DNA of 64,000 nucleotides. Origin: Thermoleophilaceae bacterium (lineage in GTDB: Bacteria > Actinomycetota > Thermoleophilia > Solirubrobacterales > Thermoleophilaceae). The stretch is from NCBI GenBank assembly GCA_030447725.1, contig JAUJOQ010000007.1:42870-106869 (forward strand), in the 5' to 3' direction. Every line of letters starts with the position of its first letter. Within the stretch, counting starts at the first letter, position 1. Positions 7,626 through 52,094 of this stretch are shown one piece after another. Both the position numbers and the translations under genes were made by a program. Below the pieces are notes generated by a model. The model saw only the letters and a program-made list of their open reading frames with translations. It was not told the DNA's origin and ran no database searches.

Positions 7626-9860
<2,235 letters not shown>

Positions 9861-9899
9861 ATGTTCCTTTCGGTGCCGCCTCCGGTTGGCGGCGCTGCT

Positions 9900-10221
9900 T
9901 ATGACTTCTCGATAGACGTCCCGAGGACCCTAGCAAGGCTCTCCCGGACCTTTGCGGACACCCAAGCCGGGCGCTGGGTCAGCCCGAGCCAGGCCAAGCG
10001 CCGTACGGCCCACCCCGCAGAGGCTAGTTCGTTGTCATGACCGACCGCGTAGACGCCCGCTGAACGCGAAGCAGCGCCCCCTTTCGCACCCGCGTCTCGA
10101 TGGCGCCCTCGCCGAGTCCGAGAGCACGCAGCTGAGCGCAGCCGACCACACCGTGCTGTCGCCTCAACAGACCGCTCAGACGACGGTCAAACGACGGTAG
10201 CTCTCCACTTAACCCTTCCAC
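9900..10221 (-). pseudogene. Frameshifted, truncated remnant of a DUF559/AbiEi_4-like gene
   Basis: ORF 10024..10221 encodes LLRRQHGVVGCAQLRALGLGEGAIETRVRKGALLRVQR and then loses the family motif. Shifting frame near 10058 restores GVYAVGH. Only about 100 codons remain before the pnp leader. Confidence 0.5.
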
Positions 10222-10297
10222 CCCAAGTAAGTGGAGACTCCCCTCAGAATGGCCCCTCCCAGGGCGGGGCGCGGCCTACAGCCAGCCCCGGCGGGGC

Positions 10298-13200
10298 CTA
10301 CAGCCCCCGCCGGCCCCAGGCGCGCAGGAAGCGCTGGGTGCCGCGCCTCGTGGAGGTGAGTGCCTTGTCGCCCAGGCCCACCTCCCTCACCCGACCCCTC
10401 TGGGTGCGGAAGAAAAGCCGCGACTTCCCGCCGCGCGCCGTGAACCACACGGAGCGCCCGACGCGGTAGCGCCTTTCGCCCCTGAGCCGCTGGCGCATCG
10501 CCCGGACGCGCATGCCCGTGCGGACGCCGCGAACCCGGAAGCGCTTGCTGGAGCTGATCACCAGCACCGCCTTGCGCCGGATCCGCTCGCGCGAACGGTT
10601 GCTGATCTTCGACGAGAGCCGCCTGGTGGGATAGCCGATGCGCATCTGACCGCCGCCACGGACGCAGTAGCGGTCGATCCCCTTGTGCGACTGCAGTCGC
10701 TTGGCGCCGAGAGCACGCCGCTGGCTCGTCCGGGCGCGGCCCAGCCGCGCCTTGCCGAGCCCCCGCGCCTTGACGCCCCCACGAGTGGTGACGCACCTGC
10801 GTCGAGAGCTCCCGCCAGACCCGGCACCGCCACCCGCCTGGCCCGCGACGCACGCGGACGTGAAGTTGAGGGTCTGCCGCTCGCCACGGTCGATCGTGAC
10901 CTGCCGGGTGTTGCGCATCGTGCCGTCGGCCGTCTCGCAGGTCAGCGTCCAGCTTTCGACCTGTGCGGGCACGAAGGGATCCGGGCCCTGGAAGGTGACC
11001 GTCCCGTCGTACGGCTCTGTCGCCGCGAAGTTGTTAGCCCGGAACACGTACGCCCCGGCGATGTCCGGGCCCGACAGGGTGATCTGCTCGAAGTCGGTGG
11101 TGCCCTGCTGAGAGGTGCCGACCTCCGGCTCGCCTGCGTCGACGGTTCCGTTCGCGTTCGTATCGCGGAACAGCCGCGCGTCCCAGTCGCTCGTGATGGT
11201 CTGCCACTCGATCCGTACCGTGAACTTTTCGTTGTCGACCCCGGGCCCGTTGGCGGGGACCGTGAACGGGTGGTCGTTGTGGACCGCCGGGTCGTTGTTG
11301 TTGGGGTCGACCGGATCGGGAGTGGCGCCGGCGGGACTGCCGGTGAACTCGACCTTCGGGCTCGGTTCGCCGCTCGGCACGCGCCCGGTGGACTTGGCCA
11401 CCGCAGGGCGGGTGGACGGGTTGATGTGCCACTCGAACGCCCCGGAGGCGGGCACCACCATCGAGGTGTCAAGCTTGTCCTCGAACTCGATCACGTCGGT
11501 TTCCTCGCCGTCGCGGATCACGGGCGACGTCTTGGTCATGAACGTCTTCGTCAGGCGCAGAACCGCTCCGGCCGGGGCGCTGCCCTCGATCACCGAGTGC
11601 CTCGTGGGGTTGGCCGTGCTCTCGAGAGCGATGAAGTAGGCCTCGCGGTTGCCCCCGCCCTCGCGACCGCCCTCGTCGGCGCGCGCGCTGGTGCCCTCAT
11701 ACTCCTTGACGACTTCGCTGTACGGCGGATGGAAGTGACCTTCGGTGCATCCGACGCGCTTGCCATCGGGCTCGTCGGGGATCACGCAGCCGATCTCGAA
11801 GGTGAAGCCGAAGCCACCCGTCGCCGGATATGTCCAGTCCTCGGTCGTGCCCGTGGTGTCGTAGAGCTCGAAGCCCTTCTGGCTCAGATAGCCGTTCTCG
11901 GCCGCCATCGCGTCGCCCAGGGCCTTGTAGCCCCGGTTCTCGTCGGGCGGCTCCCCGAGGCTCTGGACTCCCGGCGGGCGCAGGATCAGATCGGAGAAGG
12001 TGTGGTTGGTGATGAGCGTGGTGACGTGGCGCTTCGAGACAAGGTCACGGATGTTCTTGGTCTCCGGCTCGGAGAACGGGCCGGGGCCGCGGTAGTCCTC
12101 GTCGATGATCGACTCGCCTGCCCCCGGGCCGCCCCAGAGGCCGCCGTAGTTGCGGTTGGGGTCGACGCCCGTCGCCGCCAGACCGGCGGCGAAGCCCGCG
12201 TCGCAGTTGCCTGCCTCGCTGTCGTTGGCCAGGCGGCAGTTCTTGCGCCGGTACTCGCCGGTGGGGTTGGTCACGATGTTCACGACCTCGTTGCCCTGGC
12301 CGGGGTTCGGCGCGCCGCGGCCTCCGCCCGGGCCCTCCGCCGCCGCGATTCCGCGGGTACGGGAATGGTTGAACCCGTCCGGGTTGACCACCGGGATGAC
12401 GATCGTGCGCGTCCTGGCGAGGAGCCCGCGCACGCGGTCGCCGGCCGCGCCCGGCGCCTTGCTTCCGTTCACGAGCTCGTAGGCCCACTCCATAGCGTGC
12501 TCCCCGGAGGGCCACTCGCGCGCATGGTGGAGACCCATCTGGAGGAAGACCGGCTTTCCGTCGCGCGCGTTGACGTCCTCTGTGATCTCTATGCCCTGGA
12601 CGAAGCGGCCCTCGTAGGTCTTCGACGGCAGGACGATGGGCTTCACAAGCGTCGGATTGGCCTCCACCAGCTGCTTCATCTCGTTGTTGTAGTCCTCGAG
12701 CGTGCGGTACTTGTCGCGACCGCTGGGAAGCGCCGACCTGTTGACCGAGCGCGCGAAGCGGCGGTCGGCGGCGCGGTCGAGCTCGCTCTGGGCGTCAAGA
12801 TCCGCGATCTGCGTCGTGAACATGAACTTCGAGTCGCGCAGCGTGTTGGCGTCGTCCGCGCCGTGGAGGACGACATCGATGAAGCCATCCCCGGCGTGCT
12901 CGGTGAGGTCGAGCCCGAGGCCGGTCAGCTCGTTCTTGCGCGCCCTGGTGGGAGTCGAGACCCGTACCAGTGAGGCCTTCTCGACCTCGACGTCGGGCCC
13001 GAAAGCCTCGGAGCCGACGGTCAGGCGGGCGGTGTCGGCGCCGCCGGCACGCCGGCAGGCCTGCAAGGTCAGCTCCTGGCCCTGGGCCACGAGCCCGTTC
13101 GCGACCTCGCTGGCGCCGAAGAACGCCGACCCGGTGACCCTCCGGCCCGTCAGCGCGTCGAAGACCGCCAGATCCCAGTCACCCGAGGGCGCCTCGAGGC

Positions 13201-13408
13201 GCGCTGTGAGGCTTCCGGCCGCCGGCGCGGTAAGCGAGCGCTGCACGTAGCCCTCGCCTCCGTCGAGCGGACGGTCGATGCAGCTGCGCTTGACGGCGTC
13301 GGCCACCGATAGGTCGGTGGAGAGGATCTCGCCCGCGGCCGCGGGGGACGCGGCGGTGGCGAGCACGGACACGGTGAGCGCCGCGCACGCGGCAATCTGA
13401 CGTCTCAT
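10298..13408 (-). CDS. Secreted M14-family zinc carboxypeptidase-like protein with Arg-rich C-terminal domain
   Basis: Signal peptide MRRQIAACAALTVSVLATAASPAAAG. M14 motifs are HHAREW (HxxE), VVNPDGF and TNHTFSDLILRPPG. Alternative ATG at 13441 (ATGA overlap with the dsbA-like stop), but codons 13409-13441 have low GC3, which favours 13408. Confidence 0.85.
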   Translation of the reverse strand: MRRQIAACAALTVSVLATAASPAAAGEILSTDLSVADAVKRSCIDRPLDGGEGYVQRSLTAPAAGSLTARLEAPSGDWDLAVFDALTGRRVTGSAFFGASEVANGLVAQGQELTLQACRRAGGADTARLTVGSEAFGPDVEVEKASLVRVSTPTRARKNELTGLGLDLTEHAGDGFIDVVLHGADDANTLRDSKFMFTTQIADLDAQSELDRAADRRFARSVNRSALPSGRDKYRTLEDYNNEMKQLVEANPTLVKPIVLPSKTYEGRFVQGIEITEDVNARDGKPVFLQMGLHHAREWPSGEHAMEWAYELVNGSKAPGAAGDRVRGLLARTRTIVIPVVNPDGFNHSRTRGIAAAEGPGGGRGAPNPGQGNEVVNIVTNPTGEYRRKNCRLANDSEAGNCDAGFAAGLAATGVDPNRNYGGLWGGPGAGESIIDEDYRGPGPFSEPETKNIRDLVSKRHVTTLITNHTFSDLILRPPGVQSLGEPPDENRGYKALGDAMAAENGYLSQKGFELYDTTGTTEDWTYPATGGFGFTFEIGCVIPDEPDGKRVGCTEGHFHPPYSEVVKEYEGTSARADEGGREGGGNREAYFIALESTANPTRHSVIEGSAPAGAVLRLTKTFMTKTSPVIRDGEETDVIEFEDKLDTSMVVPASGAFEWHINPSTRPAVAKSTGRVPSGEPSPKVEFTGSPAGATPDPVDPNNNDPAVHNDHPFTVPANGPGVDNEKFTVRIEWQTITSDWDARLFRDTNANGTVDAGEPEVGTSQQGTTDFEQITLSGPDIAGAYVFRANNFAATEPYDGTVTFQGPDPFVPAQVESWTLTCETADGTMRNTRQVTIDRGERQTLNFTSACVAGQAGGGAGSGGSSRRRCVTTRGGVKARGLGKARLGRARTSQRRALGAKRLQSHKGIDRYCVRGGGQMRIGYPTRRLSSKISNRSRERIRRKAVLVISSSKRFRVRGVRTGMRVRAMRQRLRGERRYRVGRSVWFTARGGKSRLFFRTQRGRVREVGLGDKALTSTRRGTQRFLRAWGRRGL

Positions 13409-13437
13409 TGGCGAAAGTTTTACACCAACCGTGCGCT

Positions 13438-13893
13438 TCATGAATCAGGTGGGATCTGTTTGTCGTCCATCCCGGCCAGGCGCGCGAGCAGAATGGGGTC
13501 GGGCACGCCGGAGTGGGCCACGCCGTCCACGAACACGGTCGGGGTGCTCGTGACCCCGGCGCGGATCCCGGAGCGGAAGTCACGGCTGACCCGGTCGGCG
13601 AGAGCATCGGACCGGCGGTCGGACTCGAAACGGCGAACGTCGAGTCCCAGGCGCTCGCAGCGCTCCCACAGGTGGGGATCGTCGAGGTGGCCCTGGTCGG
13701 CCAGGAGCGAGTCGTGCATCTCCCAGAAGGCGCCCTGCAACGCCGCGGCCTCGGCCGCTATCGCCAGGACCCGGGCCCGCGGGTGCTTGGAGACCACCGG
13801 GAAGTGGCGGAACACCCGGCGGAGGGGGATCTCATCCAGCAGCCGGCTCGTGCGGGCGCAGTAGGGGCACTCCAGATCGGAGTACTCGATCAC
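13438..13893 (-). CDS. DsbA-family thiol:disulfide oxidoreductase
   Basis: CPYC active site in EYSDLECPYCA. The in-frame upstream sequence GDHVRGEGRL belongs to the conserved N-terminus, so the likely 5' end is near CTG 13968 (see findings). Confidence 0.8.
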   Translation of the reverse strand: MIEYSDLECPYCARTSRLLDEIPLRRVFRHFPVVSKHPRARVLAIAAEAAALQGAFWEMHDSLLADQGHLDDPHLWERCERLGLDVRRFESDRRSDALADRVSRDFRSGIRAGVTSTPTVFVDGVAHSGVPDPILLARLAGMDDKQIPPDS

Positions 13894-13960
13894 GAGCCTG
13901 CCCTCGCCGCGGACGTGATCTCCGGCTCCCTCGGGAGGCGGCGCCGCGCTGCCGAGCCCC

Positions 13961-14422
13961 TCACGCAGCCGCTTGCTCGAGAGCGTCGAAGATCAGGTTG
14001 GCGCCGGGGATCTCCAGCGGGGAGGGCGACGCGTGGGCCCACACCACGTCGAGCTCCGGGCCGATCATCACCAACGCGCGCTGGTTGTGGCCGCGCTCCT
14101 CGACGTAGACACCGTAGGCCTTCGACACCTCACCCTTGGGATGGAAGTCGGCCAGGAGGGGGATCGAGACGCCCATCTGCTGCTGGAAGGCCTTGTGCGC
14201 GAAGGCCGAGTCGACCGAGATGCCGTAGAGCTTGGCGCCCTTGGCCTCCAGCTCTGGGAGCACCTCCTGGTAGACGTTCAGCTGGTCGGTGCAGACAGGA
14301 CTGAAGTCCAGCGGATAGAAGGCCAGCACCGAGATCTGGCCGGCAAGGTCCTGTAGGGAAACCTCGTCGCCGTCCTGATCGGGCAGCGTGAAGTCGGGAG
14401 CGACAGCACCCGCCTGGATCAT
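13961..14422 (-). CDS. Peroxiredoxin (AhpC/TSA family)
   Basis: ATG at 14422 within ORF 13961..14725. [11 protein letters not shown]...[14 protein letters not shown] peroxidatic Cys motif. The start overlaps the rpsO stop (ATGA). Confidence 0.85.
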
Positions 14423-16461: not shown

Positions 16462-17455
16462 GCAGGGTGGTAACCAGCTCGTCGGGCGCGAGCTCTGTGG
16501 TGAAGCCCGCCGCCTGGCGGTGGCCCCCGCCGCCGAGGTTGCGGGCGATCAGCGACACGTCGACCTCGCCGTCGGTGGCACGCAGGCTCACCTTGCGCCG
16601 GCCGCGACGGTCATCGGACAGGAGCTCACGCACCAGTACCGCGACCTTCGTCTGCTCCACGGCCCGGAGGTGGTCGACCACGCCCTCGGAGTCGGTCTCG
16701 AGCGCTCCGGTCTGCTCGTAGTCCGAACGGGTGAGCATGGCCATCGTGATCGAGCCCTCGTCGTAGCGGGCAACGCCCTGCAGCGCCCGCGTGAGCAACT
16801 CGAGGCGGCGGAAGGGAAGATCCTCGAACAGCCGGCGGTAGACCCGGTGGGTGTCCACGCCGACCTCGATCAGATCCGCGGCCATCCGATGGGCGGTCGG
16901 AGTGGTGTTCTCGTACATGAAGCGTCCGGTGTCGGTGACCAGCCCCACGTACAGGGCTTCGGCGATGCGCGGGGTGATCTCGGCGCGCAGCTCGCGCGCC
17001 AGGTCGAAGACGATCTCGGCGGTGCACGACGCCTCGGGCACCACCAGGTTGACGGTGCCGAAGCGCGTGTTGTCGTGGTGGTGGTCGACGTTGAGGATGT
17101 GCATGCCCTCGCGCCGGAGGAAGTCCATGGGCATACGGTCGATGTTGCCGCAGTCGAGAAAGACCACCGTGCGGTCGTCCACGTCGTCCGGGGCAGCTCC
17201 GAGCAGGCCGTCGAAGGTCATGTGCCGGTACTCGTGCGACAGCGGGAACTCGTCGGGCGACATGTACATCACGGAGTCCTTGCCGAGCTGCTCGAGCACC
17301 CAGTGCATGGCGAGCAGCGAGCCGAGAGCGTCTCCGTCCGGGTTCTCGTGGGTCGTGAGCAGGAAGCGGTCGGCCCGCCGCAGCTCATCGGCCACCTGAT
17401 CGAGCCCCCTCTGCAGGGTGACCCCCGCGAAATCTTCCCTCGGGCTAACGCTCAC
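16427..17455 (-). CDS. nrnA: DHH/DHHA1 phosphoesterase (NrnA-type oligoribonuclease/pAp phosphatase)
   Basis: THENPDGDALGS, DHHH and GGGH motifs. GTG start overlaps the rbfA stop (GTGA). Confidence 0.85.
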   Translation of the reverse strand: MSVSPREDFAGVTLQRGLDQVADELRRADRFLLTTHENPDGDALGSLLAMHWVLEQLGKDSVMYMSPDEFPLSHEYRHMTFDGLLGAAPDDVDDRTVVFLDCGNIDRMPMDFLRREGMHILNVDHHHDNTRFGTVNLVVPEASCTAEIVFDLARELRAEITPRIAEALYVGLVTDTGRFMYENTTPTAHRMAADLIEVGVDTHRVYRRLFEDLPFRRLELLTRALQGVARYDEGSITMAMLTRSDYEQTGALETDSEGVVDHLRAVEQTKVAVLVRELLSDDRRGRRKVSLRATDGEVDVSLIARNLGGGGHRQAAGFTTELAPDELVTTLREQVATQLGAV

Positions 17456-17850
17456 TTCTCAGGACCGTCCCCCGAAGGATTCGGCATGGATGCCGAATGC
17501 TCCCCGTCCTCTCCGGCAGCTTCCTCCAGAAGCTCGGAGATCCGAAAGCCGCGGTCGATCGCCTCGTCGTGCAGGAACTCGAGCGTCGGCGTGCGCTTCA
17601 TCCGTACCTCGGCCGCGATCGAGGCCTGTAGATGGCCGCGTGACGATGTCAATCCGATCAGCGAGTCCGCTCGTTCCTCCTCAGAGCCGAGCACGCTCAC
17701 GTACACCCGCGCGTGGCTCAGGTCAGGGGCTGTCTCGACGGCGGTCACTGTCACGAATCCTATGCGCGGATCTTTGAGATCGGCGGTGATGTGAGCCGAG
17801 AGAACCTCCCTCAGCGCCTCGTTCACCCGCCTCATGCGGTCGGCGGGCAC
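17452..17850 (-). CDS. rbfA: Ribosome-binding factor A
   Basis: 132 aa; RVNEALREVLS...DPRIGFVTVT.VE.APDLSHARVYVSV. The C-terminal tail contains palindromic-element copy 1. Confidence 0.93.
   Translation of the reverse strand: MPADRMRRVNEALREVLSAHITADLKDPRIGFVTVTAVETAPDLSHARVYVSVLGSEEERADSLIGLTSSRGHLQASIAAEVRMKRTPTLEFLHDEAIDRGFRISELLEEAAGEDGEHSASMPNPSGDGPEK
17473..17503. repeat. Palindromic mini-element, copy 1 (in rbfA 3' end, 18 nt upstream of the nrnA start)
   Basis: CGAAGGATTCGGCAT-GG-ATGCCGAATGCTC. The 9-bp arms ATTCGGCAT/ATGCCGAAT are perfect. About 50% GC in a roughly 70% GC background. Confidence 0.8.
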
Positions 17851-20398: not shown

Positions 20399-20632
20399 TC
20401 AGTCTAGATCGTCTCCGTCAACCATCACAGGAGCGCGAAACGATCGAGCGAAGGCCCGCCCGTCCGCCGCCCTGCTTCTGCACTCCGGGGCGGCACACAG
20501 GTAGGCGCCCCGGCCCTCTGCCCGACCGTCGGGGTCGCGCTCCACCCTGCCCTGCGCGTCCCGCACGAAGCGCGTGAGCCGGTCGCGCGGAAAGCTGCCC
20601 CCGCAGGCTACGCAGCGCCGCTCGGGGGCTAC
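20399..20632 (-). CDS. ylxR: YlxR/DUF448 RNA-binding protein (start codon unresolved)
   Basis: ERRCVACGG...RLTRFV...DPDGRAEGRGAYLC...C matches the DUF448 pattern between nusA and infB. There is no ATG/GTG/TTG within 100 codons upstream of the motif. The 5' end is placed at GTA 20632, after a GGAGGAGG SD (see findings). Confidence 0.65.
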   Translation of the reverse strand, partial: VAPERRCVACGGSFPRDRLTRFVRDAQGRVERDPDGRAEGRGAYLCAAPECRSRAADGRAFARSFRAPVMVDGDDLD

Positions 20633-21996
20633 GCCTGTTCCTCCTCCGCGTCGCTGGGCGGCTCGTCGCTGGGCGCCGTCTCGGCGGCCACTTCCGGAAC
20701 GTCGGGGGCCCCGCCATCGCCGTCGCCGTCGGCACCGGGAGCCAGCTCGTCGCCCTCCTGGTTCTCGAGAGCCTGGTGAGCGGGCAGACCGCAATAGCGC
20801 GAAGCCGGAAGCGAGGCGTTCGGACAGCGCTTGCCGTTGGCCAGTATCGCGGCGCAGCGCCCGGCCACCTCCTCCTCCTCGTAGCCCATCTCCGCCTCTT
20901 CGGCGGCAAACTCGGTCTCCGAGCGGATGTCCACCCGCCACCCGGTGAGCCGCGCTGCCAGCCGGGCGTTCAGCCCGTCCTTGCCGATCGCCAGCGACAG
21001 CTGGTCGTCGGGGACGATCACGGTGGCCTGGCGGCCGTCGTCGTCCACGAGCACCTCGCGCACGCGCGCGGGCGAAAGCGCCTTGGCCACGAACCGGGCG
21101 GGCTCTTCGTTGTAGGGGATGATGTCGATCTTCTCGCCGCGCAACTCGGACACGACCATCCTCACGCGCGAGCCGCGCGGGCCGACACAGGCGCCGACGG
21201 GATCGACGCCCGAGGTGTGCGACACGACGGCGATCTTCGAGCGGTAGCCGGGCTCTCGCGCCACGTTCTGGATCTCGACGAGCCCGTCGGCAATCTCGGG
21301 GACCTCGAGCTCGAACAGCGCGCGGATCAGCTCGGGTGACCTGCGCGAGACGATGATGCTCGGGCCCTTGGACTCCGACGAGACGTCGGTGATGATCGCC
21401 TTGACCCGTGCGCCGTGGTCGTAGCGCTCGCCGCCCACCTGCTCGGAGCGCGGCAGCAGCGCCTCCACGCGCTCGCGCAGCTGCACCAGGGTGTAGCGCG
21501 AGTCGGACTGCTGGACGATGCCGGTGATCAGCTCGCCCACCCGGTCCTGATACTCGTCGAACATCATGTCGCGCTCCGCCTCGCGGATCCGCTGGAGGAT
21601 CACCTGCTTGGCCGTCTGGGCGGCGATGCGGCCGAAGTCCTCCGGCGTCACGTCGCGCTCGTCGATCTGGTCCTTGTACTCGGCGAGGGTCTCCTGGTCG
21701 AGCTCGGGCTCCTCGGGCTCGCGCAGCTCGCCCGTCTCAGGGTCGATCGTCAACTCCTCCTGCTGCTCCTCGGCCTCGGCCAGCAGCCTCTCCTCGAGCT
21801 CGGCGGGGAGGATCAGCTCGAAGACGGTGAAGTCGCCCGTGAGGTGGTCGATGTCCACGCGTGCGTACTTGGCCGAGCCGGGGCTCTTCTTGTAGGCCGA
21901 CAGCAGGGCGTCCTCCAGGGCGTCCATGAGGGTGTCGGCGGAGATGCCCTTCTCCTGCTCGAGCACGTGGATCGCGTCGACGATCTCCTTGCTCAC
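20629..21996 (-). CDS. nusA: Transcription termination/antitermination factor NusA with acidic Cys-containing C-terminal extension
   Basis: GTG at 21996 preceded by [30 protein letters not shown]-terminus, then S1 and two KH domains. The start overlaps the rimP stop (GTGA). Confidence 0.95.
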
Positions 21997-22469
21997 CTCT
22001 TCCCTCCCTCGCCCGCCACCAGATTGCCGCGGTGTATCTCGCTGTACGGAATGGAGACCACCCCCCACTGCGGGGTGACCCCTTCGGGCCCACCCCTCGT
22101 GAGGACCGCCACCGTGACCTCGTCTTCCGAGGCCCCCACCAGCTCGCCCGTGAAGCTGCGGTGCCCGTCGCGCGGCTGCCGGGTCCGAACGCGAGCCTGC
22201 CTGCCGAGATAGCGCCGGAAGTGGTCGGGCTTGGTGAGCGGGCGCTCCGGCCCCGGTGAGGAGACCTCGAGCGCGTACTCGGCCCTCAGGTCGGGGAGCG
22301 CCTTCGTAACCCGCTCGCAGAGTGCGAGGTCGACACCGTCGGGATGGTCGATGGTGAGGCGCAGCCGCCCTGCGGCCACCGGCTCGCACGCCAGAAGCTC
22401 GACGTCGGGTAGCGCCACCGCGAGGCGGCGCTCGATGTCGGTCTGGAGGTGATCTGTGGATTCGGTCAT
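21993..22469 (-). CDS. rimP: Ribosome maturation factor RimP
   Basis: ATG at 22469 (MTESTDHLQTDIERRL...). The longer GTG-initiated ORF to 22502 would read through the terminator hairpin. Confidence 0.88.
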   Translation of the reverse strand: MTESTDHLQTDIERRLAVALPDVELLACEPVAAGRLRLTIDHPDGVDLALCERVTKALPDLRAEYALEVSSPGPERPLTKPDHFRRYLGRQARVRTRQPRDGHRSFTGELVGASEDEVTVAVLTRGGPEGVTPQWGVVSIPYSEIHRGNLVAGEGGKR

Positions 22470-23026: not shown

Positions 23027-23482
23027 GTGGACGTGATCGACGACTTCATCGAGGCTCTGCCGGGGGACACCCGGCGGCTGGCCCACGGTGAATGGGGCGT
23101 GAGAGTGGCACCCGAGCAGGCTGCGGGATGGCCCCTCGACGTGGGGCTGCGGCTGGCGGACGGCATCTTGCGGGTGCAGGCCCACGCCCTCGACTCCTCC
23201 GCCGGCGTCGACCCCTGGATGCTCCTGTGGTGGAACCGCCAGACGCGCTACGCGCGCTTCGCGTGCACGCGGGAGAGTGATACGAACGATTCGGCATCCA
23301 TGCCAAATCATTCCCGGGAGGTATGGGTGCACGGCGACCTCCCGGTCGCAGCGGTCGACGAGGTGGGGCTGGATCGGCTGCTCGGCCTTGTGGTCGAGGG
23401 AGCGGTGGCGGTGCGCGAGTATCAGCAGGCGCGGCTGACGCCGACCGACGGCGCCGCCGGGGGTGGGTGGCTGCGCGGCTGA
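23027..23482 (+). CDS. YbjN-like (putative sensory-transduction/chaperone-fold) protein
   Basis: 151 aa, GTG start. The family assignment rests on general resemblance only. Contains palindromic-element copy 2, encoding DSASMPNHS. Confidence 0.45.
23283..23313. repeat. Palindromic mini-element, copy 2 (in the YbjN-like gene)
   Basis: CGAACGATTCGGCAT-CC-ATGCCAAATCATTC. Same core as copy 1, in reverse-complement orientation. Confidence 0.8.
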
Positions 23483-26688: not shown

Positions 26689-29880
<3,192 letters not shown>

Positions 29881-29988
29881 CTGGAGCGGAGTCGGGGGCG
29901 CAAAAACCGAGTCGGCCAAGGAAGCAGGGAGCGACGCGTGCCCTCCACGCCAGCGACCGATGACGTCGGCAGACGACGGTTTGCAGCG

Positions 29989-31173
29989 TCATCCGACCCG
30001 CTCCAGGAAGCGGTCGAAGAGATGAAGCGAGTCGTGCGGCCCCGGGCCGGCCTCGGGGTGGTACTGCACGGTGCCACCCGCGACGTCGCGGAGCACCAGC
30101 CCCTCGACCGTGCGGTCGTAGAGGTTGACCTGCGACAACTCGGCGGAGCCGAAGTCGGTGTCCCATCGGACCGCCTCGTCGGCTCCGAACCTGCGCTCTC
30201 CTTGGGGGCCGAGCACCGCAAAGCCATGATTCTGTGAGGTGACCTCGATCCGCCCGGTCTCGAGGTCCTTGACCGGGTGGTTGGCCCCGCGGTGGCCGAA
30301 GGGCAGCTTGTAGGTGTCGAGGCCGACCGCGCGGCAGAGAAGCTGATGCCCGAGGCATATCCCCCATACCGGCACCTTGCCCACCACTCCGCGCACGGCC
30401 TCGACCACATGGTCCAGAGCCGCGGGATCGCCCGGCCCGTTGGCCAGGAAGACGGCGTCCGGGCCGCGGGCGAGCAGAGTCGCCGCGGAGGTGTCGCAGG
30501 GATGCAGCTCGACCGTCGCGCCGCGCTCGCGCAGGTTGCGCACGATCGAGTCCTTGATGCCGGTGTCGAGCGCCACCACCCGCGGCCCGCCGTGCCCCGA
30601 GAGGGGGCCGAGGACCACCGGACCGGCCGGCGTGACCTCCGCGGCGAGGTCCTGCCCGGCCATCGGTGGCTCGGCCATCACCCGGTCCATCGCCTCCTCC
30701 CCGGACAGATCGCCTCCGAAGACACCGCCGCGCATCGAGCCGCGGTCGCGGATGTGGCGCACCAGCGCCCGCGTGTCGATGCCGCTGATCGCCGGGATGC
30801 CGCAGTCGGTGAGCCAGGTCAGCCATCCGCCCTCGGCATGCGGGGCGTCATCGCGATCGACGCCCTCGCGCATGACGACCGCCCTCGTGTGCACGGAGTC
30901 GGACTCCATGTGATCGGAGGCCACCCCGTAGTTGCCGATCATCGGGTAGGTGAAGACGATGATCTGACCCCGGTAGCTGGGGTCGGTGACCGACTCCTGG
31001 TAGCCCGACATCGCCGTGTTGAAGACGACCTCGCCGGTGGCGGCCCGAGCGGATGGTGATGCGAAGGATTGGTCATCCATGCCCAATCCTTCAAGGCTGG
31101 CGCCCACGGAGTCCCCATCGAAGCGCGTGCCGTCCTCGAGCAGCAGGAACGCGCTCGTTCGATCCGGCGCCAT
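29989..31173 (-). CDS. carA: Carbamoyl-phosphate synthase small (glutaminase) subunit
   Basis: ATG at 31173 (TGATG junction with the pyrC stop). LLLEDGTRF.G...GEVVFNTAMSGYQE..TDPSY and the GICLGHQ triad. Contains palindromic-element copy 3 as an in-frame insertion. Confidence 0.95.
   Translation of the reverse strand: MAPDRTSAFLLLEDGTRFDGDSVGASLEGLGMDDQSFASPSARAATGEVVFNTAMSGYQESVTDPSYRGQIIVFTYPMIGNYGVASDHMESDSVHTRAVVMREGVDRDDAPHAEGGWLTWLTDCGIPAISGIDTRALVRHIRDRGSMRGGVFGGDLSGEEAMDRVMAEPPMAGQDLAAEVTPAGPVVLGPLSGHGGPRVVALDTGIKDSIVRNLRERGATVELHPCDTSAATLLARGPDAVFLANGPGDPAALDHVVEAVRGVVGKVPVWGICLGHQLLCRAVGLDTYKLPFGHRGANHPVKDLETGRIEVTSQNHGFAVLGPQGERRFGADEAVRWDTDFGSAELSQVNLYDRTVEGLVLRDVAGGTVQYHPEAGPGPHDSLHLFDRFLERVG
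31063..31092. repeat. Palindromic mini-element, copy 3 (in carA)
   Basis: GAAGGATTGGTCAT-CC-ATGCCCAATCCTTC. 14-bp arms, 13 of 14 complementary. Confidence 0.85.
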
Positions 31174-37116: not shown

Positions 37117-37189
37117 GCGCCCGTAGCTCAGTGGATAGAGCGCTGCCCTCCGGAGGCAGAAGTCGCTGGTTCGAATCCAGCCGGGCGCG
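37117..37189 (+). tRNA. tRNA-Arg (anticodon CCG)
   Basis: Folds as a cloverleaf: acceptor GCGCCCG/CGGGCGC, D arm GCUC-AGUGGAUA-GAGC, anticodon arm CUGCC-CUCCGGA-GGCAG, T arm GCUGG-UUCGAAU-CCAGC, discriminator G. No encoded CCA. Confidence 0.95.
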
Positions 37190-50562: not shown

Positions 50563-51798
50563 TCACGAAGTCACGGCCTCGCGCTGAAATGCCTCGGCGA
50601 AGGCCGTCGTGGTGGGCTCGATCACGCGGGTCTCGAAGCTGCCACGCACGGCGTCGAGGGTCTTGAGTCCCTCACCGGTGATCACGAGCACCACCCGCTC
50701 GTCCGCGCCGATGTCCCCTCGCTCGGCGAGCTTGGCCAGCACCGCGGTCGTCACGCCCCCGGCCGTCTCGGTGAACACGCCGGTGGTCTCCGCCAGCAGG
50801 CCGATGCCCTTCCGGATCTCGTCGTCGGTCACGGAGTCGATGCCGCCGCCGGTACGGCGGGCGAGATCGATCGCGTACGGGCCGTCCGCGGGGTCGCCTA
50901 TCGCCAGCGACTTGGCGATCGTCGAGGGCTTCACCGGCTTGCACACGTCAAGGCCCGCCTCGAAGGCCTGCGCGACCGGCGAGCAGCCCTCGGCCTGGGC
51001 GCCGTTGAACGTCGGCAGGTCGCCCTCTACCAGGCCGACCTCTCGCCATTCCTCGAACCCGCGCGCGATCTTGGTGAACAGCGATCCGGAGGCCACCGGG
51101 CAGACCACGCGGTCGGGCAGCTCGAAGCCCAGCTGCTCGGCCACCTCGTAGGCGAGGGTCTTGGAGCCCTCGGCGTAGTAGGGACGCACGTTCACGTTCA
51201 CGAAGCCCCATTCGCGCTCGGCCGCGAGCTCACTGCAGAGCCGGTTCACGTCGTCGTAGGTGCCGTTCACGCTCACGAGGTGGGTGCCGTACACGCCCGT
51301 GGCGAGGATCTTCTGTTCCTCGAGGTCGGCCGGGACGAACACGTATGACTCGAGGCCGGCGGCGGCGGCGTGTGCGGCCACCGCGTTGGCGAGGTTGCCG
51401 GTGGACGCGCATGCCACCACCTCATACCCGAGCTCCTGGGCCTTGGCGAGCGCCACGGTGACCACCCGGTCCTTGAACGAGTGGGTGGGGTTGGAGGCCT
51501 CGTTCTTGACCCACACCTCACCGAGCCCGAGCCGCTCGGCCAGCCGGTCGGCGCGGATCAGCGGCGAGACGCCGGCCGCCAGCGCGGTGCGTGGAGGCCG
51601 CTCGAACGGGAGGAAGTCCGCGTAGCGCCAGACCGAGGCCGGGCCGGCCTGTATCCGCCGCTTGGCGCCCTCGCGGTCGAGGCCCGAGAAGTCGTAGGTG
51701 ACCTCGAGCGGCCCGAAGCAGCTGTCACAGGCGTGACGTGCCTCGAGCGCGTACCTCGCACCGCATTCCTTGCACTCCAATGCTTCTACCGCTGCCAT
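50563..51798 (-). CDS. Threonine-synthase-family PLP enzyme with N-terminal zinc ribbon; likely MetM-type homocysteine synthase
   Basis: ATG at 51798. CKECG...CDSC ribbon, PLP lysine motif NPTHSFKDR and ASTGN. The SAM-I riboswitch leader and the downstream GG-terminated carrier argue for methionine rather than threonine synthesis. Confidence 0.8.
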   Translation of the reverse strand: MAAVEALECKECGARYALEARHACDSCFGPLEVTYDFSGLDREGAKRRIQAGPASVWRYADFLPFERPPRTALAAGVSPLIRADRLAERLGLGEVWVKNEASNPTHSFKDRVVTVALAKAQELGYEVVACASTGNLANAVAAHAAAAGLESYVFVPADLEEQKILATGVYGTHLVSVNGTYDDVNRLCSELAAEREWGFVNVNVRPYYAEGSKTLAYEVAEQLGFELPDRVVCPVASGSLFTKIARGFEEWREVGLVEGDLPTFNGAQAEGCSPVAQAFEAGLDVCKPVKPSTIAKSLAIGDPADGPYAIDLARRTGGGIDSVTDDEIRKGIGLLAETTGVFTETAGGVTTAVLAKLAERGDIGADERVVLVITGEGLKTLDAVRGSFETRVIEPTTTAFAEAFQREAVTS

Positions 51799-51872
51799 GA
51801 CTAACACCCCTTCAAATCGAAGAACCTCCGCCGCTTGCGCTGTGACGGAGGCTCTGATCTGAGGAGCTTCGC

Positions 51873-51988
51873 CACATCTGTCAGATCTGCACGAGACCTG
51901 ATGGACTTGGCACCTTTCCTCGATGACCTGGGTCACTCGGATGGTTGCCGGGGCTTCGTCGGGCCATTTCCCTCCACCCCTCTAGATG
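51873..51988 (-). promoter_or_regulatory. SAM-I (S-box) riboswitch aptamer
   Basis: Minus strand reads CAUCUAGAGGGGUGGAGGGAAAUGGCCCGACGAAGCCCCGGCAACC...AGGUGCCAAGUCCAUCAGG...CAGAUG. This matches the SAM-I core (GAGGGA k-turn, GGCCCGA.GAA.CCCGGCAACC, GGUGC.AA.UCC, P1 CAUCU/AGAUG). A candidate terminator AGCCUCCG...CGGAGGUU-UCUUCGAUUU lies at 51813-51853. Confidence 0.85.
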
Positions 51989-52094
51989 CGTACGGCTATG
52001 TCAGCGGTGAACAATAGCGCTCGTCCTGACGGATGCAAGGCTTACAATCGGGTTTCGATGCCGATGACGTCAGACGACCCCCTCAGTACGGGCG

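Follow-up and report, generated by a model that had tools for sequence, protein, structure and literature searches.

Introduction

Short palindromic repeats that come to lie within bacterial genes have been described under several names. The Rickettsia palindromic elements, or RPEs (Ogata et al. 2000), have a length of about 100-150 bp and are restricted to Rickettsia, AT-rich obligate intracellular bacteria (PMC10969869, PMC3733652). The GTAG/CGTC-tagged repetitive extragenic palindromes (REPs; Di Nocera et al. 2013, PMC3733652) are stem-loops of 20-40 bp, located mostly downstream of open reading frames (ORFs) or between convergent or co-directional genes; some of them lie wholly inside ORFs, replication genes included, at termini or in linkers, and clusters encode tens of residues (PMC3733652). 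[quoted passage not shown] Palindromic amphipathic repeat coding elements (PARCELs), finally, encode amphipathic domains of 25 residues that form the bulk of dedicated, often membrane- or surface-associated, ORFs and are selected as protein (PMC2996958). Here we report on a 64,000-nucleotide stretch of DNA from a Thermoleophilaceae bacterium (assembly GCA_030447725.1, contig JAUJOQ010000007.1, positions 42,870 to 106,869, forward strand), hereafter the window, in which a palindrome sits inside carA, the gene for the small subunit of carbamoyl-phosphate synthase (CPS). This palindrome is probably one decayed copy of a dispersed, non-autonomous, REP/RPE-like hairpin repeat of Thermoleophilaceae, a selfish hairpin that is tolerated when translated and is unlikely to be either an operator or a selected peptide.

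Results

The palindrome, GAAGGATTGGTCAT-CC-ATGCCCAATCCTTC, occupies window positions 31063-31092 and has 14-bp arms with one mismatch, just as a first-pass annotation of the window had read it inside carA. Its GC content is 15/30, hence 50% and not the approximately 47% given there, and the surrounding window has about 70%. The copy and its host gene are located as follows:

31051..31092, minus strand: carA repeat copy (palindrome 31063-31092, tail 31051-31062)
29989..31173, minus strand: carA, host gene (394 aa, glutamine-hydrolysing carbamoyl-phosphate synthase small subunit; PF00988 and PF00117)

Read on the minus strand, as the gene is, the palindrome is translated as LEGLGMDDQSFAS, in the protein context ...GAS-LEGLGMDDQSFASPS-ARAATGEVVFNT. 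The tail that follows on the gene strand is GCATCACCATCC, palindrome and tail together give the in-frame reading EGLGMDDQSFASPS, and the peptide across the insert is EGLGMDDQSFASPSAR. Relative to empty orthologs and to E. coli, the full extra segment extends to about position 31045, for a total of 16 codons. An insertion of about that length had been suspected at the palindrome, and phmmer bore this out: the alignment with E. coli CPS small subunits of solved structure (E = 2e-73; 1BXR_B and others) contains a single gap of 16 residues, which corresponds exactly to query residues 27-42 of the window CarA. In the AlphaFold model of this protein (mean predicted local distance difference test score, pLDDT, 83.7), the insert is a surface loop, modelled with low confidence, between β-strands 17-25 and 45-52, and pLDDT falls below 50 at residues 30-42. 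At the DNA level, the copy is recovered by nhmmer with E = 3.7e-8 (31094-31052, minus strand), and as RNA it folds at -21.3 kcal/mol (z = -1.96). The window CarA is 100% identical to homolog P0001, and its closest homologs come from metagenome-assembled genomes (MAGs) of Thermoleophilaceae, Solirubrobacterales or "Actinomycetota". A CarA from a second NCBI assembly (P0121, on a 367-kb contig) differs from it by a few residues and carries the same insert, which makes an assembly artefact unlikely.

Alignment of 67 distinct flank contexts from outside the window (loci and contigs are referred to by L numbers) gave a directional repeat unit of 39-42 bp, made of a 12-bp stem arm GAAGGATTCGGC, a variable 6-nt loop ANGGAY, the second 12-bp arm GCCGAATCCTTC, and a 3' tail of 9-12 nt. 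The consensus of a 14/15-2-14/15 palindrome proposed earlier therefore has to give way to a conserved 12-6-12 unit with a variable loop and a directional tail. Stem positions carry 1.2-2.0 bits of information each, most of them at least 1.5; the tail has the consensus G[AC]RTCC..TC, which partly repeats GAATCC, and the 5' flank is unconserved (0.0-0.4 bits per position), with a T at -1 only mildly enriched. The tandem arrays have this same length as their period (39 bp in L022, 42 bp in both L035 and L074), and the consensus unit is free of stop codons in all six frames. At L093:1-220 two copies were seen 80 bp apart with identical flanks, the element sitting there within a longer 80-bp tandem repeat.

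After merging of orthologous and duplicate contexts, the 67 contexts correspond to about 45-50 sites, found in Thermoleophilaceae/Solirubrobacterales MAGs and in soil-metagenome contigs. A scan of GTDB species-representative genomes with the perfect 20-mer core ATTCGGCATSSATGCCGAAT returned 34 loci, of which only three are true relatives (L001, L005 and L022, all in Thermoleophilia MAGs), a small number that is explained by the variability of the loop. The other 31 were rejected as coding coincidences (FGI[DH]AE; Burkholderiales, Sphingomonadales and Pseudomonas). In these unrelated Proteobacteria (L002-L034 except L005 and L022), in fact, ATTCGGCAT-SS-ATGCCGAAT encodes (E)FGI[DH]AE(W/Y/F), and a perfect 20-bp palindrome can therefore come from ordinary F-G-I-D-A-E codons. 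A stem-only pattern with a free 6-nt loop identified 59 metagenome loci, mostly on contigs of desert or polar soil type (Ga0136xxx, JAABUR/JAABUS). The first-pass annotation had left room for the copies being no more numerous than expected by chance; the searches elsewhere gave many more. The same stem pattern found no copies in viral contigs. Isolated arms, which would be the mark of a longer insertion sequence (IS) with the same ends, were absent from 463 kb, a small and biased sample, and none of the loci examined had repeat copies paired around an ORF. Rfam has no family at the repeat copies, and its only window matches at the gathering score were an S-adenosylmethionine (SAM) riboswitch and a tRNA. 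A search for tandem KDSASxPNPS peptides yielded nine candidates, none of which scored, the word index being one that misses such a peptide.

Within the window, the three further copies that had been claimed inside coding sequences are real (17474-17503, 23284-23313 and 27764-27793). These copies and their host genes are:

27762..27805, plus strand: carB copy (palindrome 27764-27793, tail 27794-27805; antisense to the gene, decayed, in frame; E = 1.6e-10)
26689..29919, minus strand: carB (large subunit), host gene (frame analysis; start codon as called)
23272..23315, minus strand: hypothetical-ORF copy (palindrome 23284-23313; 13-residue insert read on the plus strand; E = 2e-9)
23027..23482, plus strand: conserved hypothetical ORF, host of the third copy (151 aa)
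17474..17503, plus strand: rbfA-tail copy (minus-strand reading EHSASMPNPSG; E = 1.2e-9)
17452..17850, minus strand: rbfA (ribosome-binding factor A), host gene (Pfam RBFA)

With up to three mismatches, the consensus of the first-pass annotation matches three window sites, against none in 100 shuffled sequences; at up to 5/32 mismatches all four copies are found, and 20 shuffles gave no match at up to 10 mismatches. A 45-nt profile built only from copies outside the window picks exactly the same four (E = 4e-8 to 2e-10). All four have decayed and differ from the stem consensus at 2-5 positions, and the rbfA, hypothetical-ORF and carB copies have RNA-fold z values between -0.2 and -1.1; perfect copies are present in other genomes. 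In the genome of the window the family looks like a set of relics rather than of active copies, and the carA copy, previously cast as the founder, is a decayed member like the other three. The rbfA copy is followed by a stop seven codons later and has lost any recognisable tail of its own. Its position is C-terminal to the RBFA domain (residues 5-108 of 132), and the next gene, for a DHH/DHHA1 phosphoesterase, starts a short way downstream. A Pfam scan of ORF 23027-23482 gave no match, and the label "YbjN-like" for this ORF was dropped for want of Pfam support.

Comparison of related genomes revealed both filled and empty sites. In the two closest relatives with DNA compared, L095 and L096, the profile search found no copies in 34.6 kb. 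The empty carA sites read ...TTG/GCG GCC ACC... in L095 and ...CTG/TCC GCA ACC... in L096 (the slash marks the junction), and in the window and L098 the 30-bp palindrome and 12-nt tail stand between CTT and GCC/GGC; L035 has an array of three 42-bp units at this place and L074 one of two. The carB site is empty in L095 and L096 (GAG/CGC ACC) and holds a 39-bp insert in the window, L098 and L035, where it is perfect. The hypothetical ORF has 13 extra codons in the window and is empty in L095 and L098. No flanking direct repeat or TSD was found at the carA, carB or hypothetical-ORF filled/empty pairs, and neither the flank alignment nor the filled and empty sites gave a conserved insertion target.

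Of 120 close CarA homologs, the majority show the ancestral spacing of 19 residues, found in E. coli as well, and the remaining ones carry one, two or three EGFG-x-DAESFAS-xx units, or remnants of them. Such remnants include TEAEPSS in P0002/3, where the left arm has been lost according to the DNA of L097, and EGFG-PFESVS in P0023, a unit without its centre. In a neighbour-joining tree of CarA computed without the insert, filled sequences crop up at eight or more places among empty lineages, and one clade is filled throughout. The ortholog comparison that had been proposed therefore shows an insert that is lineage-specific and polymorphic for presence and absence, and distant orthologs do not share the segment at all, contrary to the possibility, also raised earlier, that they might carry it in the absence of palindromic DNA. 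Within a single 90%-identity cluster, near-identical CarA alleles measure 382, 396, 410 and 424 aa, and the shortest keeps only an EGF (GAAGGATTC) footprint; exact 14-residue steps and this footprint are the signature of slippage between repeated arm sequence.

Several other features of these loci were recorded. In other lineages the same CarA loop houses two palindromes, TAGAGGGACTGTCCCTTTA and GCGCCGGGCGTGGCCCGGCGC, that are unrelated to the repeat. One, at L099:3064-3093 (P0025/P0043), is TAGAGGGAC-T-GTCCCTTTA, 27 bp long with AT-rich codons and the peptide SRGTVPLSS; the other, at L100:3060-3115 (P0118/P0104), is a perfect 9-3-9 palindrome, GCGCCGGGC-GTG-GCCCGGCGC. Neither recurred in the approximately 470 kb searched, and either hairpin insertions tend to collect in the CarA loop or a hairpin is selected there. 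The pyr/car operon of L035 has an 809-aa ORF (9850-12279) with a faint ORC/CDC6-like match between carA and carB, and that of L095 an isochorismatase-family gene (9423-10004) between pyrC and carA; the operon of the window has neither. In L095, a long-read MAG contig, carB is called as two overlapping ORFs of 749 aa and 316 aa (11150-14298), likely the result of a frameshift or an assembly error downstream of the empty site of the element.

All four copies in the window are intragenic, as the first-pass annotation had stated for the family, and this part of the claim stands; elsewhere, however, several copies follow stop codons or lie between convergent genes. A rough tally of about 45 classified sites gives about 14 internal sites, about 13 C-terminal, about 10 N-terminal or ambiguous, and about 7 intergenic ones. 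Based on Pfam assignments, the copies in C-terminal tails are found in FtsY, a Ser/Thr kinase, a MiaB-like enzyme, a molybdopterin oxidoreductase, PrmC, riboflavin synthase (RibE), HycI and DnaE; those in N-terminal regions in a PALP enzyme, LigA and PepF; and those in linkers or domain loops in DnaE (at least four sites) and in MBL-fold, arginase-family, CapD-like, NmrA-like and DUF255 proteins. In RbfA, FtsY, the MiaB-like enzyme, PrmC, RibE, HycI and DnaE, the inserts fall beyond or between Pfam domains. Intergenic copies lie right after stop codons or between convergent ORFs, and in L046 the element shares its first two bases with the TGA stop. DnaE is the most frequent host in what is a biased sample: the dnaE gene at L043:1682-5239 holds three copies, one near-perfect in the PHP domain, one decayed in the polymerase core and one decayed after HHH_6, and further contigs have a copy in the DnaE C-terminal tail. 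These frequent DnaE hits echo the excess in replication and repair genes reported for intragenic REPs. The surviving copies sit where extra residues are harmless, namely in disordered loops, inter-domain linkers, protein ends and post-stop spacers, and this is the pattern expected of a REP-like element that has little intergenic space at its disposal and is filtered by protein tolerance.

What the sites share is DNA rather than peptide. About 32 of 39 classifiable sites are read as K-D-S-A-S-[VLM]-P-N-P-S, a hydrophilic frame that gives a polar, proline-rich peptide, five as E-G-F-G-x-D-A-E-S-F, carA included, and two as R-I-R-...-R-I-L-R; the element lies on either strand relative to its host gene, at about 2:1. 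Between genomes the carB copy is 86-97% identical and its strongly constrained flanks 81-91%, and the copy retains AT-ending codons at a genome GC content at third codon positions of about 0.9. In carA, three sequences, those of the window (P0001), of P0010 (L035) and of P0037, have G:C in place of C:G at pair 9:22 of the stem; they belong to three different clades of the CarA tree, and each swap changes F to L and E to Q jointly; L035 carA also swaps pair 10:21. We consider this covariation suggestive, not strong, evidence for selection on pairing. Inspection of the few cases available revealed no trend for G-U versus A-C stem mismatches on the sense strand.

Elsewhere in the window, a full-length SAM (S-box) riboswitch aptamer (51871-51992, minus strand, 77 bits) directly precedes ORF 50563-51936 and is overlapped by the GTG start called for this ORF. 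The only tRNA is a tRNA-Arg (CCG) at 37117-37189 on the plus strand. The NusA ORF (20629-22389, minus strand) encodes 586 aa with the NusA_N domain starting at residue 135, so that either its start was over-called or the protein has a long N-terminal extension.

Discussion

In its behaviour, the repeat resembles the RPEs, as the first-pass annotation had recognised from the in-frame palindromic insertion at a permissive position: both are dispersed palindromic repeats found in frame in unrelated housekeeping genes, translated, at tolerant positions, both vary in presence and absence between related genomes, and for both the mobilising mechanism is unknown. However, the two are set apart by size and host, as the unit described here measures 39-42 bp and resides in free-living soil Actinomycetota of 70% GC, and by its in-frame tandem arrays of variable number and its directional tail. 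With REPs it shares the nature of a short dispersed stem-loop, and a 12-bp stem with a 6-nt loop is within the criterion of a 5-13-bp stem and a 2-20-nt loop; unlike REPs, it has no GTAG/CGTC tag at the foot of the stem, its tail is 9-12 nt against the 3 bp of REPs, and no gene for a REP-associated tyrosine transposase (RAYT) has been linked to it in the loci examined. Like MITEs, it is a small non-autonomous repeat that ends in inverted repeats and can be translated along with the host ORF, but the whole element is in essence one hairpin, no TSD is seen at the three filled/empty pairs, and there are no long TIRs. IS200/IS605-derived (PATE-like) elements have a hairpin at each end, insert 3' of a fixed tetra- or pentanucleotide and show a strand bias linked to replication; the repeat differs from them in being a single hairpin with no conserved flanking target and with mixed orientation over 14 kb of the window. 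As to PARCELs, the likeness lies in tandem intragenic repeats of variable number with dyad-symmetric coding DNA, and the difference in single units of 13-14 residues, in several frames, in unrelated enzymes.

Full-text literature searches found no such element described for Thermoleophilia, Solirubrobacterales or Actinobacteria, in line with the earlier remark that no equivalent was known from high-GC Actinomycetota. The term Actinobacteria, in fact, never occurs in the survey of tagged REPs (PMC3733652), and a paper on Thermoleophilia signature indels mentions neither CarA nor CarB. Intragenic REPs, short ones among them, have nevertheless been described in other phyla (PMC3733652), and the kind of element is therefore a known one: what we report is a new family of it, in a new phylum and lifestyle.

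As to how such a repeat could arise and persist, a copy landing in a gene is simply translated, because the unit has no stop codons and a length that is a multiple of three, and it would be retained only at permissive positions and in permissive frames. Once in place, it grows and shrinks locally in steps of 39-42 bp, probably by replication slippage between the repeated GAAGGATTC. Its spread would require a factor able to recognise the hairpin and to act without duplicating the target; a RAYT or an IS200/IS605-type (Y1/HUH) single-strand transposase is a candidate that we put forward with low confidence only, because of the missing GTAG/CGTC tag, the single hairpin, the lack of a conserved target and the mixed orientation. 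Recognition by such a trans-acting factor might also maintain the palindromic symmetry. Alternatively, symmetry could be kept without any selection by template-switch correction of quasi-palindromes, which is an established mutational process.

Several points weigh against the view of the palindrome as a copy of a selfish repeat. The loci examined revealed no mobilising gene, and the word "mobile" is founded on distribution and polymorphism. Our metagenome scan demanded near-perfect stems, and the sample therefore favours intact copies as well as sites in conserved genes that are widely shared. The scattered presence of the insert on the CarA tree could be due to one old insertion followed by losses, or to allelic recombination, rather than to repeated insertion. 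Outside carA, uncompensated single stem mismatches are commoner than compensated ones, which limits the evidence for selection on pairing. The two unrelated palindromes that occupy the same CarA loop elsewhere mean that a hairpin at that place could itself be useful. Finally, IS200/IS605-type elements are typically strongly biased to the lagging strand, and the order +,-,+,- of the window copies within 14 kb is unlike such a bias, although n = 4.

One possibility is that the hairpin has been co-opted as a cis-acting RNA, acting as an mRNA stabiliser or processing signal, as a terminator or attenuator devoid of a U-tract, or as a translational pause, and is selected, in carA and at operon junctions, for expression control. 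We regard this as unlikely, even though it retains some weight because of the junction positions and of the two unrelated CarA-loop palindromes. Many copies, in fact, lie right after stops, between co-directional or convergent ORFs, or before the next Shine-Dalgarno sequence, as REPs do (PMC3733652), and, counting the repeat itself, the CarA loop holds three palindromes, unrelated to one another, in different lineages. In L035 carA the triple array reaches a folding z of -5.7, and in three CarA lineages pairing is preserved by the swaps. However, most close CarA orthologs do without any insert, the two orientations relative to transcription both occur, roughly at 2:1, the window copies have decayed to z values of about 0 to -2, the stem mismatches (by inspection, with small n) show no sense-strand preference for G-U, and Rfam offers no match. 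Moreover, the stem sequence itself, beyond its pairing, is conserved across genomes, which points to a sequence-specific protein rather than to a generic RNA stem. The repeat could also serve as the binding site of a dimeric DNA-binding protein, for instance a tyrosine recombinase, a nucleoid-associated protein or some regulator, and the 12-6-12 layout of conserved stem and variable centre does resemble recombinase or operator core sites, with the third GAATCC-like motif in the tail recalling an accessory half-site. The first-pass annotation had offered a dimeric-regulator operator as an alternative, which we find unsupported and quite improbable: the copies come as insertions of 39-42 bp within the coding sequences of housekeeping genes that have nothing in common, they form tandem arrays whose unit number varies, and close relatives lack them; the position relative to gene starts is inconsistent, the half-sites co-vary in L035 and in the window and are not fixed, and direct-repeat recombinase sites within essential operons would be deleterious.

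Molecular drive is a further way to spread a conserved sequence through divergent genomes, if the motif behaved as a DNA uptake signal, with preferential uptake and recombination of the fragments that contain it. The uptake signal sequences (USS) and DNA uptake sequences (DUS) of Pasteurellaceae and Neisseria also occupy tolerated frames inside genes, and the occurrence of our repeat in coding regions, in preferred frames and in inverted pairs, together with the patchy filled alleles on the CarA tree, would agree with it. Known uptake signals, however, are cores of 9-12 bp that arise by point mutation, quite unlike 42-bp insertions that amplify in tandem; the density is low, four copies per 64 kb in the window and none in the 34.6 kb of L095 and L096; and we know of no documentation of competence in this bacterial group, so that we hold this explanation to be very improbable. 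The least probable of all, in our judgement, is that the peptide is what is selected, as a linker, modification site or recognition tag, with DNA similarity as a secondary effect. The frame K-D-S-A-S-[VLM]-P-N-P-S does account for about four fifths of the classifiable sites, but the use of at least three frames and of both strands, with unrelated peptides (EGLGMDDQSF in carA and a different one in carB), largely refutes the idea. Some copies are intergenic, the DNA is a palindrome of rare AT-ending codons, paired nucleotide swaps impose two amino-acid changes together, and the CarA segment is predicted to be disordered.

A stronger version of the selfish-repeat interpretation is that these copies represent an undescribed and still-active class of translated mini-hairpins in free-living Actinomycetota, which insert without TSD and are excised or expanded by exact codon multiples in essential genes. 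We advance this only tentatively, as a possibility less likely than not to be correct; if true, it would provide natural length variants of CarA, CarB and DnaE. Bolder still, a hairpin at the CarA-loop position of the carA message or gene may be selected and acquired convergently, an idea suggested by the three unrelated palindromes that share this loop across lineages.

On the practical side, the repeat causes length heterogeneity, and possibly mis-assembly, in metagenome bins, and it could be mistaken for a lineage-specific signature indel; it also offers markers for strain typing of Thermoleophilaceae, in the manner of variable-number tandem repeats. The carA loop, with 0, 1, 2 or 3 units in near-identical genes, is a tractable natural series that can be used to study the movement of the element, the symmetry of hairpins in coding DNA and the tolerance of essential enzymes to insertion. 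The in-frame selfish repeats of Rickettsia were explained by weak selection in small intracellular populations. A similar family in soil bacteria that are free-living, abundant and of high GC content means that the phenomenon is not limited to a Rickettsia-like setting.

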